NCBI GenBank assembly: GCA_964354755.1
Contig: CAYHBA010000001.1
Location: 320,706-384,705 of the forward strand
Origin: an uncultured Thermoplasmata archaeon
Lineage (GTDB): Archaea; Thermoplasmatota; Thermoplasmata; SG8-5
Length of the DNA stretch: 64,000 nucleotides
Direction of reading: 5' to 3'
Part shown: positions 4,380 through 55,923 of the stretch, one piece after another
How positions within the stretch are numbered: the first letter of the stretch is position 1
Layout: the number at the start of each line of letters is the position of its first letter
Translations under genes and position numbers: made by a program
Notes under the pieces: generated by a model
Database searches by the model: none
What the model was told of the DNA's origin: nothing
The model's input: only the letters and a program-made list of their open reading frames with translations

Positions 4380-4712
4380 GATAATCTGTGCTCGGAGAGC
4401 TGCATTCGCGGGCATCCGACCGACCGCGCCATGCCCCGCCTGTTTTTAGCGGTATCCAAAGTCCTGCGGGACATTTGGAACGGGAGGGCGGGGTTGTACC
4501 ACCCGGTTGTCTGAATCGAGTGGGTTGACAAAACTAATATCCAAAATCCCTTAAAACCTTGGCTGTACGAGCATTGTAGCTCCATGGCAACTTATTAACA
4601 TCAATGCGAGTGAGACGAATGGCTTGCCATTCGTTGCAAGGGCAGGGATGTGAGGCCCCACAAACGCTCACCGTGGCCTCCGATGTATGAGCTCTTGTAA
4701 GGGGACGATTCT
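4380..4712. repeat. structured non-coding element A (candidate ncRNA; shares motifs with elements at 39336 and 55678)
   Basis: 333 nt with no ORF; contains catgccccgcctgt and ggagggcgggg motifs also found in element B; several strong hairpins (acgaatgg-cttg-ccattcgt; gaggcc...ggcctc). Confidence 0.4.
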
Positions 4713-4713
4713 C

Positions 4714-5268
4714 TCATCCTAATGATACCGCCGCCACATCCGAGTACACCGGCCTCTGGGGCGTCAGCACGCTCTTCTTCAGGATGATGCGGTCGACACT
4801 GACTTCGCCGAACTCGCCCGGCTCCCACTCCCGGACTACCTGGGCCAGCTCTCGGATGTTGCGCCCGTCCTTGATTCTACCGATGGTGATGTGGGGAGAG
4901 AATTTCCTTTTCTCGGGCTCGAAGCCCAGGGGCTTCAGGCCGTCGTCGATTTTCCCCGCAATGATGCCCAAGGGTTCCGCCCCCTCCAACCCGGCCCAGA
5001 CAACCGATATCCTGTTGAGGTTGGGAAAGGCTCCCGAGCCTTTCATCTTCATCTGAAATGGGGGTATGCCGACTGCTGCGGACTTCATGATTTTCTCGAT
5101 CTCCGGAATCAGTGATTCATCAGTGTCTCCCAGGAACTTCAGCGTGACATGGATGTTATGCAAATCCACCAATTTAACGGTCGCGCCAGAAGCTTTCACA
5201 GCCTTGGTATATTTCTCCAATTCGGCCGAGAAAGGCACTTCCACAGCGATGAATGCCCTGAAGGTCAC
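4714..5268 (-). CDS. thpR: RNA 2',3'-cyclic phosphodiesterase (2H/LigT family)
   Basis: Two H-x-[TS]-x motifs (HVTLKF, HITIGR) in a ~180-aa protein. Confidence 0.8.
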   Translation of the reverse strand: MTFRAFIAVEVPFSAELEKYTKAVKASGATVKLVDLHNIHVTLKFLGDTDESLIPEIEKIMKSAAVGIPPFQMKMKGSGAFPNLNRISVVWAGLEGAEPLGIIAGKIDDGLKPLGFEPEKRKFSPHITIGRIKDGRNIRELAQVVREWEPGEFGEVSVDRIILKKSVLTPQRPVYSDVAAVSLG

Positions 5269-8821: not shown

Positions 8822-9921
8822 TTTGCATCACCTTCCTTTTTTTCCTCCGCGGGAGGAGCCTCATCCTTGGCCGCGTCCCCCTCGGGGGCTGGTTCGGATG
8901 CGAGCGGGTCGACACCCGGCGCTTCGATAATCAGCTCCAGCTTCTTCTTGCCGGACTTTAATTTCCTGGCCGCGGTCTCCTCGTCCGCCAGCTCCTTCTC
9001 TCGTATCTCGATCTCCCTGGCCTTGGCCTTCTTCTCCTCGATTATCCTGGCCATCTCCTCCGGGGACGTGTCCAGGGAGACTTGGTTCAAGGGCCCGGTG
9101 AGTATATGAAGATTCTTGGCCTGGGTCGCCGTCACCTTCATTCTTGATGTTTTCTTGAGCGCCTCGAATACGGCGACGCTGTAATTGACAGTTGTCTTGG
9201 TGTGCCCCTTTGTGAGGCCCCAGGAATCCTTTATCCCTGCCATTGTGACGACTTTCTTGGCTATGTCCCCGAGTGCGAGCCCGACGCCCCTGGGCGCTGG
9301 CTTCAGCGTGACAATCACAGAGCCGCATTTTCCGTCGACCGCGAACGGTACTGTGTGCGGGGTCCCGCAGCCGCATTCCCATGAACCGCAGCCGCGTTTC
9401 ACCTCAATCATGTTGAGTTTGGCCTTGTCGATGGCATTCCGTATCGCCGGACCGACCTCCTTGCCCTTGGCCCGGCCCATTCCGACGAAGCCGTCGCCGT
9501 TGCCCACGACGGCCGTGATGGCGAACCTGACCCTGCGTCCCGAGTCGGTCATCCTCTGGACCATGTTGACGTCCAGGACCTCGTCCATGAGCTCGGGAAG
9601 AAGTATATCCACTATCTCCGGCTCCTTGATGGGGAGCCTTGTGGCAAGCGCGTCGCTCATCGTCGTTATCTTGCCTGAATAAACCAGCTTTCCAAGCTTG
9701 GTCTTCGGAACCCATGCAGCGCTCGACTTCGAGTCGTCCGGGCGCCTTTCCCTGCGTCCGCCCCCGGGTCCACCTGAAGAACCGCCCCTGGGCCCGCCTC
9801 TCGGACCTCCTGGCCCCCTCTGGCCGCCGCGGGGTGCGCCCCTCGGACCGCTCCTTGGGCCCGGCGGTCCCCTTCTGGGTCTGTCAGACGGTCCGTTTCT
9901 CTGTGGTTGCTCGTCAGCCAT
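8818..9921 (-). CDS. rps5: 30S ribosomal protein S5 (uS5) with RGG/PRG-rich N-terminal and acidic/Lys-rich C-terminal extensions
   Basis: Core S5 motifs ([22 protein letters not shown]...); 367 aa versus about 210-240 aa typical. Confidence 0.9.
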
Positions 9922-9923
9922 GT

Positions 9924-10430
9924 CTAGCCCTCCCTGATCTTGCCGGCGACAGCCTCGAACATTTTAGCCACCTTTTCGTTAATGTGACTGCCTGATATGC
10001 GTTCCCCCGCAGGAAGAACCTCTTCGCTATGGGGAATCTCGATGCCCGCATCCAGCATCCCCTTGAGGGCCGCGAACACCTTTGTGCCCCTCTTGGGGGG
10101 CCTGAGACCCATGTCCAGCACGGCCTTTTTCACTCCGGCTTTCGAGGCCCTCTTTCCGGCCATGAAACCGGCTAGATAGGCCGAAGGTATGTTTCCGGTG
10201 GTGTGCTTCCAGCCCAGCTTTTCCAGCTCCATGGTGGTGGCTGTGGCCAGGACTGAGTCGCCCCGCGGGTTGAATTCGATGAACTGGACAATGGTGTTCT
10301 TGGATGTGCAGCGCACGACTGCCCTGGGCAGCCCCGAGGAAATGAGCTTGTGCCTCATCCTGTAGTCCGTCTTGCCCAGCCTCCGTCTTTTGAACGGCAC
10401 ATGGTATCTCGGTCCAGTCGCCATGTTCAC
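9924..10430 (-). CDS. rpl18: 50S ribosomal protein L18 (uL18)
   Basis: [17 protein letters not shown] motif; operon position. Confidence 0.9.
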
Positions 10431-39322: not shown

Positions 39323-39335
39323 CGTTTGACAAGCA

Positions 39336-39585
39336 GCATGCCCCGCCTGTATCAGCTTATTTTTACGCAAGGGCGGGGTTTCATATTATTGGCTGCATGG
39401 GTGACAAGGCATTTCAGGCATTATATCAGCCGGTTTGGAAAGCCTCGCCTGAATACAAGCGTTTGGGAGCAGGAGGGCGGGGATGTCGGGTACTCGCCTG
39501 GCTTGTGCTTGCCAGGCGAAACACATTTCATGGCTCTGGCACTGGAGCGTTTTTCTCTAGCTTCTGACGAAGTTTGAGAGAGACG
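39336..39585. repeat. structured non-coding element B (homologous to element C at 55678-55900)
   Basis: Shares gcatgcccc(g/a)c(c/t)tgt, attggctg(c/t)atg(g/a)gtgaca and the 35-nt block gggtactcgcctggcttgtgcttgccaggcgaaac (hairpin cgcctggc/gccaggcg) with element C. Confidence 0.55.
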
Positions 39586-39762: not shown

Positions 39763-40602
39763 TCATAGGTCGCCATGGCGGATGCCGTAGAACGCGCAGC
39801 ATCCGCCATGCTCTTCCAGCTTAATTCCCAGGGCCTGCAATCCCCGAACCAGATTCTTGGAAGGCATCGCCACCGCAGCGATGCCCAGCTCCTTCACCAG
39901 CTCCGGGGGGAGAATATCACCCCTCGGCCTCATGCATCCGATACCCAAGGCGGTCTCCCGGGGAAGGATTTCCCTGGCCATCTTCAGGACCTCAACCAGT
40001 CTCTTTCCGGCCAGGGCATCGTTTTCTCCAATCAAGGCGTTTATCACGACAAAGGGGATTTCATGCCTGGCTATGATCTCCAAAGCTTGTTTCTCCCCTG
40101 AATCCCCGCCCCTGTCCAAGCCGGCCGTGATATGGGGCACTACCCTCAGGCCAGTCTGTTTAAAAGTGTCTAGGGCTTTGCCGAAGTATCCGGGCTCCAG
40201 CTCAATCCCGTAAATCCTCTTCACGACCTCAGGGGAGCCGATGATGTCGAATGACACGATGTCGATGCCCTTTCCCCGGAGCTTGGGGATATTGTCCAGA
40301 TGTATGAAGCCCGTATGTATATTTATCGATATATCTATATTTTCTTTTATATTTCTAATAATATCTAAATATTCGAATACAGGAACCTGGCCGGTCGCAT
40401 CGCAGCCCCCGCTTATGAGCATCCCTTTCGCTCCATCCGTTGCGGCTTTTGCCGCAACGGAATGCAGTTGGACCGGGGTGATGGCCGGAGCCATGTGCTT
40501 CAGGTAGCGTGCCCGGCAGTGGGGGCATTGGAGCTGGCAGCGGGGGCCGGTCAAAGAGATTTGGACGAAGTTCTGCGAGGGATTGTAGATTGCGACCATC
40601 AC
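39763..40602 (-). CDS. radical SAM domain protein
   Basis: CQLQCPHC (CxxxCxxC) cluster near the N-terminus followed by a TIM-barrel-like region. Confidence 0.65.
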   Translation of the reverse strand: MMVAIYNPSQNFVQISLTGPRCQLQCPHCRARYLKHMAPAITPVQLHSVAAKAATDGAKGMLISGGCDATGQVPVFEYLDIIRNIKENIDISINIHTGFIHLDNIPKLRGKGIDIVSFDIIGSPEVVKRIYGIELEPGYFGKALDTFKQTGLRVVPHITAGLDRGGDSGEKQALEIIARHEIPFVVINALIGENDALAGKRLVEVLKMAREILPRETALGIGCMRPRGDILPPELVKELGIAAVAMPSKNLVRGLQALGIKLEEHGGCCAFYGIRHGDL

Positions 40603-55648: not shown

Positions 55649-55677
55649 TGGTCTCATTTTCAAAACATCTTATTGCT

Positions 55678-55900
55678 GCATGCCCCACTTGTGAGGGTGG
55701 GGTAATAATGTATTGGCTGTATGAGTGACAGAGCAATCTTGGACATTCTGTTGCTCTGTTTTCGGGGACCTCGCCTGTGAGGGCGAGGGGGCTGGGTACT
55801 CGCCTAGCTTGTGCGCGCCAGGCGAAATTGGCAGCTCTTGCAAGGTTTCGTTTCTCTCTAACTTCGCATTGCATACTATCATCAAAGTTTGAAGAATCGC
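55678..55900. repeat. structured non-coding element C (homologous to element B)
   Basis: Contains gcatgccccacttgt, attggctgtatgagtgaca, gggtactcgcctagcttgtgcgcgccaggcgaaat and the aagtttga tail; sits where rpl1-rpl10-rpl12 would be expected. Confidence 0.55.
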
Positions 55901-55923
55901 CTCCATGCCAGAGCCGATTTGAA

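Follow-up and report, generated by a model that had tools for sequence, protein, structure and literature searches.

A family of hairpin-bearing non-coding repeats in an uncultured Thermoplasmata group and its resemblance to miniature mobile elements

REP, BIME and REPIN elements are bacterial repeats mobilised by single-copy RAYT (TnpA_REP) transposases, with a GTAG tetranucleotide standing before the REPs, and ERIC, Correia/CREE, RUP and BOX are transcribed bacterial intergenic repeats with inverted termini and target duplications. PATEs are non-autonomous IS200/IS605 derivatives, known from Haloquadratum walsbyi (PMC3119063) and also from Geobacillus stearothermophilus (PMC10055086). They have neither terminal inverted repeats (TIRs) nor target duplications, carry similar near-terminal palindromes, are too short for a transposase, and form heterogeneous subfamilies with small repeats inserted into the palindromes (PMC3119063). 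Some PATEs carry omega-RNAs that are used in trans (PMC10055086). The omega-RNAs of TnpB and IscB include the Rfam HEARO and IS605-orfB motifs, together with the archaeal sotRNAs (PMC4615843).

The window, meaning the whole 64-kb stretch of DNA that was analysed, holds four full copies (A, A', B and C) and one fragment (B') of a single non-coding repeat family. The syntenic loci of relatives were retrieved via the element neighbours L11, radical-SAM protein and TBP, yielding six lineages and ~228 kb at 73-92% DNA identity to the window (individual loci are denoted below by L and a number). PATEs are the closest described class and REP/REPIN-RAYT systems the next closest. Like PATEs, the family is short and non-coding, with two similar palindromes and heterogeneous subfamilies that keep a conserved terminal oligonucleotide, and it shares with them frequent strain-specific insertions, smaller repeats within palindromes and an archaeal host. 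It likewise has no TIR and no target-site duplication (TSD) and is too short for a transposase (150-340 bp, no conserved ORF). In contrast to the near-terminal palindromes of PATEs, the second palindrome of the family (H3) is set back 70-110 nt from the 3' end, and the first (H1) 0-9 nt from the 5' end. H1 is near-terminal, and H1 and H3 are near-duplicates kept by covariation; a small hairpin located closer to the 3' end does not resemble H1. The family further differs from PATEs in that no IS200/IS605 gene-bearing relative with shared ends was found among the ~228 kb, and in having full-length unpaired conserved blocks, extra hairpins and no target oligonucleotide common to all subtypes.

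With REPs the family has in common many intergenic GC-rich hairpins with a fixed 5' tetranucleotide (CAUG here, GTAG in REPs), frequent inverted pairs between convergent genes, copies that greatly outnumber transposase genes, and probable co-transcription with upstream genes. However, its unit is 5-10 times longer and multi-hairpin, its pairs consist of whole elements in a tail-to-tail arrangement and not of two 35-nt REPs, the host is archaeal, and no RAYT-like gene was identified in the ~228 kb. Classical MITEs are similarly miniature, non-coding, multicopy, intergenic and presence/absence polymorphic, whereas the family lacks TIRs (score 3-7 over 35 nt) and lacks TSDs at two filled/empty sites. 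Omega-RNAs are also multicopy structured RNAs of ~150-300 nt at a transposon end, which can outlast the protein gene; the family is set apart from them by the absence of an Rfam match, of an adjacent or nearby TnpB/IscB gene and of any sign of a guide segment. ERIC, CREE, RUP and BOX resemble it as mobile repeats whose RNA hairpins join mRNAs and can affect stability or termination, but their inverted termini and target duplications, their bacterial hosts and their unrelated sequences distinguish them.

Copies in the window and their gene neighbourhood

The window encodes archaeal TBP, FtsZ, Spt5, ribosomal protein L11, MutS/MutL and peptide ABC transporters, and the named closest homologues of L11 and TBP belong to 'Thermoplasmata archaeon' MAGs. 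Genes are tightly packed, and the A, B and C elements occupy three of the few long spacers: A between the convergent TPR-HhH and radical-SAM genes, B between the convergent L11 and TPR-ATPase genes, and C in the spacer that separates the 3' end of a LigT-like gene from the TBP gene start. A previous sequence-only reading, which had noted three related intergenic regions, had placed them in convergent or 3'/5' intergenic space, and this description is accurate for all three. The coordinates of the copies and their parts are collected in Table 1.

Table 1. Repeat copies, their structural parts and associated short repeats in the window and in loci of relatives
Feature	Sequence	Position	Strand	Remarks
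Copy A	window	39333-39566	+	subtype 1; E 1e-29 with non-window profile
Copy A, 5' GCAG-CATG	window	39333-39340	+	
Copy A, H1 stem	window	39341-39348/39371-39378	+	
Copy A, block ATTGGCTGCATGGGTGACA	window	39388-39406	+	
Copy A, H3 stem	window	39443-39450/39475-39482	+	
Copy A, H4	window	39495-39518	+	
Copy A'	window	39747-39568	-	subtype 2, without H4; E 4.9e-12; newly found
Copy A', H1	window	39739-39719	-	
Copy A', H3	window	around 39660-39623	-	
Copy B	window	55675-55866	+	subtype 1; E 5e-39 with non-window profile
Copy B, GCTG-CATG	window	55675-55682	+	
Copy B, H1	window	55683-55702	+	GTGA loop
Copy B, GUGACA block	window	55712-55730	+	
Copy B, H2b stem	window	55728-55736/55751-55759	+	
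Copy B, H3	window	55769-55788	+	GTGA loop
Copy B, H4	window	55801-55824	+	
Fragment B'	window	55883-55915	-	33 nt; GGCTCTGGCATGGAGGCGATTCTTCAAACTTTG on minus strand, matching subtype-2 3' part
Copy C	window	4426-4724	+	subtype 3; full, diverged member
Copy C, CATG	window	4430-4433	+	
Copy C, H1 stem	window	4434-4441/4486-4493	+	44-nt loop
Copy C, short repeat TTTTTAGCGGTATCCAAAGTCCTGCGG	window	4443-4469	+	in H1 loop
Copy C, H3 stem	window	4557-4564/4640-4647	+	
Copy C, 74-nt insertion module	window	4565-4638	+	in H3 loop; shared with H1 and/or H3 loops of other copies
Copy C, alternative hairpin GAGGCC...GGCCTC	window	4652-4680	+	replaces H4
Hairpin CCGGTAATC-N-GATTACCGG	L131	14261-14291		
Hairpin CCGGTAATC-N-GATTACCGG	L140	2475-2506		
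Hairpin CCGGTAATC-N-GATTACCGG	L140	10853-10883		
Hairpin CCGGTAATC-N-GATTACCGG	L142	9904-9934		
Hairpin CCGGTAATC-N-GATTACCGG	L145	4203-4233		
Hairpin CCGGTAATC-N-GATTACCGG	L158	4319-4349		

Comparison of A with the window by blastn returned a 92-nt core shared with B (E 1e-9) and smaller collinear blocks, and a mechanical repeat finder listed no non-coding repeat in the window other than this family. The near-identical blocks claimed for A and B are present: gcatgcccc(g/a)c at 39337 and 55679, attggctg(c/t)atg(g/a)gtgaca in the GUGACA blocks of both copies, and the 8-bp hairpin cgcctggc-ttgtgctt-gccaggcg, which is H4 of copy A and whose counterpart in B has one A.C mismatch. A profile HMM was built from 10 copies of other genomes with zero window sequence. 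In the 64 kb it matched B (E 5e-39), A (1e-29), C at 4424-4726 (9e-16) and the minus-strand segment 39750-39570 (5e-12), and nothing beyond A, A', B, C and the weak 33-nt B'; with the profile of its own subtype, copy C reached 6e-33. Because the window-free profile recovers the window copies, the family is real, and it is more extensive than first described. Its elements recur in independent assemblies from NCBI, JGI, ENA and Logan.

The similarity might instead reflect coincidence, a fault of assembly or small protein genes that had been overlooked, and mechanical ORFs of 74-93 aa do lie over every copy; this explanation is, however, effectively refuted. The independent-profile E values, down to 5e-39, and the agreement of independent assemblies speak against chance and artefact. 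As for coding potential, the elements had been said to overlap no credible ORF; the mechanical ORFs that do overlap them are non-coding. The small-protein reading was rejected: the open frame differs among copies, indels between copies are not multiples of three, and the ATG of GCATG in copy B meets a stop after 4 codons. An antisense ORF is open in both B and its orthologue in L122, but the two antisense peptides are 66% identical, compared with 86% for the DNA.

Copy A starts 11 nt past the stop codon of the TPR-HhH gene, in the orientation of that gene, and closes with a pyrimidine-rich tail ending in CTTCTG at 39566. The region had been taken as a single element at 39336-39585; instead, the spacer holds A on the plus strand and A' on the minus strand, and the supposed 'hairpin' at 39556-39583 is the A/A' junction. 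A' reads CCAG-CATG-CCCCGGG GTAA... on the minus strand, and its 3' end, CTTCG, meets that of A tail to tail, 1 nt apart; A' lies immediately downstream of the radical-SAM gene and in its orientation. The radical-SAM gene beside A' (39763-40602) encodes 279 aa in the window and was called with 217 aa in L140 (10001-10654). In L140 (92% identical) the radical-SAM spacer is without elements and looks rearranged.

Copy B starts 27 nt past the L11 stop codon, again in the orientation of the gene, and ends in CTTCG at 55866. It is faced tail to tail by B', which lies immediately downstream of the TPR-ATPase gene and whose match is weak on its own (E 0.011 with the non-window profile, 1e-4 with the census profile). 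Copy C had been credited with sharing only some motifs with A and B; catgccccgcctgt (4430-4443) and ggagggcgggg (4483-4493) are indeed shared, but C is a complete member. It is antisense to both flanking genes, with its 5' end towards the TBP promoter, and strands within the window are mixed (three plus, two minus). The 3' tail of C (4714-4724) overlaps the opposite-strand stop codon of the LigT-like gene, and the C-terminus of the LigT-like protein may for this reason have been reshaped by the insertion of C. The short repeat TTTTTAGCGGTATCCAAAGTCCTGCGG of the C H1 loop occurs also twice in tandem right behind the TPR-HhH stop codon in a relative (L142 1387-1428), and may be a second tiny mobile repeat.

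Modular architecture and hairpin conservation

A census with nhmmer found 17 copies and two fragments in the ~228 kb of the six related lineages, all of them intergenic, with a typical copy length of ~180-340 bp and a density of ~1 per 13 kb. The further copies on which the sequence-only reading had made its proposed family depend do exist. In a 14-copy alignment, the module order is identical on one strand in every copy: (1) (GCAG)CAUG; (2) hairpin H1, CCCCGCC.../...GGCGGGG; (3) UU, then an optional hairpin CAUCGAAUU...AAUUCGAUG, in L152 CGCCAGAUUU...AAAUCUGGCG; (4) the GUGACA block; (5) a variable arm; (6) AAAGCC and hairpin H3, a near-duplicate of H1; (7) a subtype-specific hairpin (H4); (8) CUCUUGCA(C)AGG; and (9) ACG with a pyrimidine-rich tail and terminal YUUCG. 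The hairpin of subtype 1 (A, B) is GGUACU-CGCCnnnn...nnnnGGCG-AAAC and that of subtype 3 (C) is GAGGCC...AACGYUCACC...GGCCUC; subtype 2 (A') has no subtype-specific hairpin, and subtype 4 has a different tail.

In some copies a module of ~74 nt, with compensatory changes of its own, lies in one or both of the H1 and H3 loops, reminiscent of the Haloquadratum SMR-A repeats, whose targets are the palindromes of PATEs. The module reads GUACGAGCAUUGUAGCUCC...AUCAAUGCGAGUGAGACGAAUGGC...GCCAUUCGUUGCA and is seen in copy C of the window, at L122 3857-4210 and at L145 3625-3878; in the L122 copy, the H1-loop module is closer to the H3-loop module of copy C than to the H3-loop module of the same copy. 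Tail-to-tail pairs are formed by A/A', by B/B', by one pair in L145 and by one in L152, with another in a divergent spacer of L145. In L152 (8691-9248) there is also a second TBP paralogue, which lies between LigT and TBP and is 86% identical to the TBP of the window; the two tail-to-tail element copies of L152 lie between the two TBP genes, and the window has one TBP there.

Another hairpin family, CCGGTAATC-N-GATTACCGG, is unrelated to the first and is found repeatedly just past stop codons in relatives (Table 1). It is absent from the window; by chance, 0.03 occurrences would be expected per 64 kb. In L158, around 9600-10240 (GCA_002496385.1 lineage), four tandem units of ~196 nt separate a 247-aa gene from a UPF0147 gene, with a tRNA-like sequence just upstream of them.

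The hairpins H1 and H3 covary: across 12 copies, 94.9% of cells are paired and double changes occur at 8 of the 18 pairs. None of 500 shuffles attained any of five measures, and pairing dropped to 37-64% when the partner was slid by 1-3 columns. Two-sided changes lead, for example, from CCCCGCC/GGCGGGG to CCCCGGG/CCCGGGG, CCCCCGC/GCGGGGG or CCCAGCC/GGCUGGG. In H4, 97.5% of cells are paired, with three compensatory pairs (five copies). The inner stems hold 13 G·U pairs versus 2 A·C (50 versus 2 with terminal pairs counted), and since G·U so far exceeds A·C on the sense strand, the complementary strand would fold worse. Four-base loops are mostly GNRA (14/17), with CUUG in another 2/17. Copy A folds with z = -4.4, and RNAalifold on seven subtype-1 copies recovered H1, the arm past GUGACA, H3 and H4. 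Comparison of copy B with its orthologue in L122 (86% identical, versus 88% for the L11 gene and 65% for the adjoining 26-nt spacer) points to constraint on the copy in its place and revealed compensatory changes in H1 and H4.

H1, H3 and H4 are therefore preserved by compensatory changes, which indicate selection on the single-stranded fold of the sense strand. Given the tetraloop classes and the wobble asymmetry, this fold is most likely that of an RNA and less likely that of single-stranded DNA. Longer-range RNAalifold helices rest on too few changes to claim. Two candidate pairings, a closing helix of the 5' GCAGC with the sequence just past YUUCG and a helix between GRGU of the GUGACA block and RCUC, show few one-sided changes only and are not claimed.

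The earlier reading could not match the elements to tRNA, RNase P RNA or SRP RNA consensus, and they correspond to no known RNA family in the searches made here. Rfam 15, whose families include tRNA, RNase P, SRP, riboswitches and ribozymes, gave no match at gathering thresholds in the whole window, and at E<=10 A, B, C and the L122 copy attracted only miRNA, snoRNA and CRISPR-DR noise far below threshold; the HEARO and IS605-associated motifs had no match among these copies at E<=10, and ARAGORN found no tRNA or tmRNA. Among known ribozymes and introns, the hammerhead was rejected (CUGANGA core absent, no Rfam match), as were group I and group II introns (5' flank not ending in U, far too small for group II, no Rfam match). 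Plasmid and phage collections gave no blastn match. Viral contigs scanned with the H1/H3 patterns contained no copy, the sole match being a bacterial-type terminator hairpin in a high-GC phage. A scan of the genome collection with the 15-base TTGGCTGNATGNGTGAC, which is too short, returned chance bacterial matches only, and a metagenome scan with a 20-base H4 pattern, which is too strict, returned two already implied lineages and a chance match in a bacterial gene. No description of this repeat family was found in Rfam, the plasmid and phage collections or the literature searched.

Insertion sites, turnover and placement behind genes

The mobility of the family is well supported by orthologous sites. 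In L122 (3857-4210), a 340-bp subtype-3 copy is inserted precisely at the junction of ...CAG with the conserved MgtC promoter AAAGATATAAATA; L131, L125 and the window have this site uninterrupted. L158, whose TBP protein is identical to that of the window, has no copy C in its LigT-TBP spacer. These two filled/empty pairs with alignable flanks display discrete insertion. The LigT-TBP site of L152 holds a subtype-1 copy in the same orientation as C, faced by a subtype-4 copy. Copy B is present in the window and in L122 (92% identical) and missing in L125-L136 (two other lineages), and both A and A' are missing from the closest relative, L140 (91-92% DNA identity). In the radical-SAM spacer, subtype and orientation vary among lineages, and the site downstream of TPR-HhH is occupied in four of five lineages. 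Between genomes that differ by 8%, three gain or loss events fall within the ~40 kb compared. Of the options offered by the sequence-only reading, miniature mobile elements are borne out by the filled/empty orthologous sites and by differing subtypes at one site.

In 12 copies, the best local alignment of the 5'-terminal 35 nt with the reverse-complemented 3'-terminal 35 nt scored 3-7, with no TIR. No TSD was found at the two informative filled/empty sites, and flanks share no words. CAG stands before CAUG in 6/11 copies of subtypes 1 and 2, and the insertion point of empty sites reads (T)CAG. Copies of subtypes 3 and 4, among them copy C, do not have it, which weakens a universal 'CAG' target motif. 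The CAG may belong to the element itself.

No transposase (Y1/TnpA, TnpB or RAYT) was found among the called genes of the ~228 kb or in six unannotated ORFs, no tnpB gene adjoins any of the 17 copies, and the ~228 kb contain no gene-bearing full-length element sharing the family ends. In L131 (14296-19807), three ORFs (348, 925 and 426 aa) replace the YjeF_N and KaiC-like genes of the window, with an element copy at the edge of the block, which may be an inserted island; a search of these unannotated ORFs for a hidden transposase gave no Pfam match.

Twelve independent sites were available for the analysis of placement. At 8 of the 12 the element lies immediately downstream of a stop codon in the orientation of the gene, and at the remaining four it points away from a neighbouring gene start. 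No common TATA-like box occurs at a fixed distance upstream (14 copies), and a tail T-run of >=5 is present in only about half of the copies; the combination of a BRE/TATA element ~25 nt upstream with an oligo-T terminator, which would mark an independent archaeal sRNA gene, was not found. The earlier option of a structured ncRNA family holds for the existence of a family and for one-strand structural selection on its hairpins; a regulatory or termination role is hypothetical. Taken together, its interpretation as an ncRNA family, miniature mobile elements or regulatory-termination elements is partly supported.

This placement bears on the main rival explanation, in which the elements are host-encoded structured sRNAs or cis-acting 3'-UTR modules for transcript-end protection or termination, spread by duplication, recombination and gene conversion and kept because they are useful. 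We consider it a minority possibility. Its case is built on the sense-strand-specific G·U pairs and GNRA/CUUG loops, on single-stranded blocks conserved along the full length in all subtypes, and on the orientation of the sites, 8/12 of which are directly behind a gene while the other four diverge from a gene start. The site behind TPR-HhH, filled in 4/5 lineages, an orthologous copy B as conserved as coding sequence, and ~228 kb without a transposase also fit it. Against this stand presence/absence differences at 8% divergence with whole-unit insertion into an otherwise conserved spacer, the differing subtypes and orientations within one spacer, the missing promoter of their own and the T-run in about half of the tails. 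A density of ~1 per 13 kb, together with truncated fragments such as B', is moreover typical of selfish repeats.

Proposed mobilisation in trans and the possible role of an RNA

We favour, with a probability of roughly 0.55, the reading that the family is a non-autonomous, trans-mobilised, hairpin-bearing non-coding repeat of one uncultured Thermoplasmata group, resembling PATE and REP elements and mostly co-transcribed behind genes. The mobilising enzyme would act in trans and recognise hairpins of single-stranded nucleic acid; its best precedent would be the HUH/Y1 'peel-and-paste' chemistry of IS200/IS605-derived PATEs and of REP/REPIN. As the ~228 kb contain no Y1, TnpB or other transposase gene, such an enzyme is something we infer rather than observe, and membership in the PATE or REP/REPIN-RAYT class is not established. 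Because most copies lie directly behind a stop codon in the orientation of the gene or beside a divergent promoter, read-through transcription is probable, and copies read through from the upstream gene would then probably fold as RNA. The GNRA/CUUG tetraloops and G·U pairs support RNA folding of transcribed copies, and the element RNA may serve the element itself or act as a 3'-UTR end structure.

Several features argue against a PATE-like mobile repeat. The called genes of the ~228 kb include no transposase of any kind, and the geometry of IS608 is not matched, given that H1 lies 0-9 nt from the 5' end and H3 70-110 rather than ~10 nt from the 3' end. No target motif is conserved across subtypes; orientation in the window is mixed, in place of the strong strand bias of IS200/IS605; no consistent TATA box is present upstream; and the full-length conserved unpaired blocks exceed the needs of a transposase substrate. 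Filled/empty sites with alignable flanks number just two.

A more far-reaching reading, which we regard as unlikely, is that the elements are genes for a new class of mobile, modular structured RNA that acts in its own spread or maintenance rather than as a passive transposase substrate. Such an RNA would consist of a core of 4-5 helices with GNRA/CUUG-capped arms and optional Y-shaped extensions, and might serve as guide or scaffold for an RNA-guided enzyme with a single gene per genome, or be a small homing RNA of ribozyme-like character.

One variant of the PATE/REP-like reading, which we likewise consider unlikely, is that the elements are IS200/IS605-derived PATEs retaining a TnpB-type omega-RNA scaffold. 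H1 would then correspond to the left-end hairpin, and the stretch of ~150 nt that starts at the GUGACA block and reaches the 3' end to the guide-RNA scaffold; the guide would come from the flank past YUUCG, and a TnpB encoded elsewhere would cut empty sites. Such elements would be expected to lack TIRs and TSDs and to be too short for a transposase, as here, and PATEs 'often encode omega-RNAs' for use in trans (PMC10055086). The concentration of conserved structure towards the 3' end and the conserved terminal YUUCG fit as well, and the small modules within palindromes recall SMR-A elements (PMC3119063). On the other hand, the ~228 kb hold neither tnpB nor tnpA and no gene-bearing full-length element with the family ends, no Rfam match appeared at E<=10 even with the IS605-associated motifs included, the hairpin geometry is unlike that of IS608, and the adjacent target motif is inconsistent.

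Within the preferred reading of a non-autonomous mobile repeat, the family is best filed as a structurally elaborate variant of archaeal hairpin-bearing non-autonomous elements. It was previously uncatalogued, and adds a new case to the miniature mobile elements, not a new kind of biology; interest would be high only if the RNA actively partners in mobility. If the family is merely a selfish repeat, the finding is an ordinary one and still useful for annotation, where these spacers are not to be called small ORFs. Non-autonomous repeats in uncultured Thermoplasmata have been little described so far. The rapid turnover of the elements means that they could be used as strain markers, and they are a source of spacer remodelling near core genes (the neighbours of L11, TBP, SecY and MutL). 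With its RNA-type hairpin signatures and compensatory evolution, the family is a good candidate for leading to a new archaeal hairpin-recognising transposase or a trans-acting RNA partner, for example an omega-RNA.
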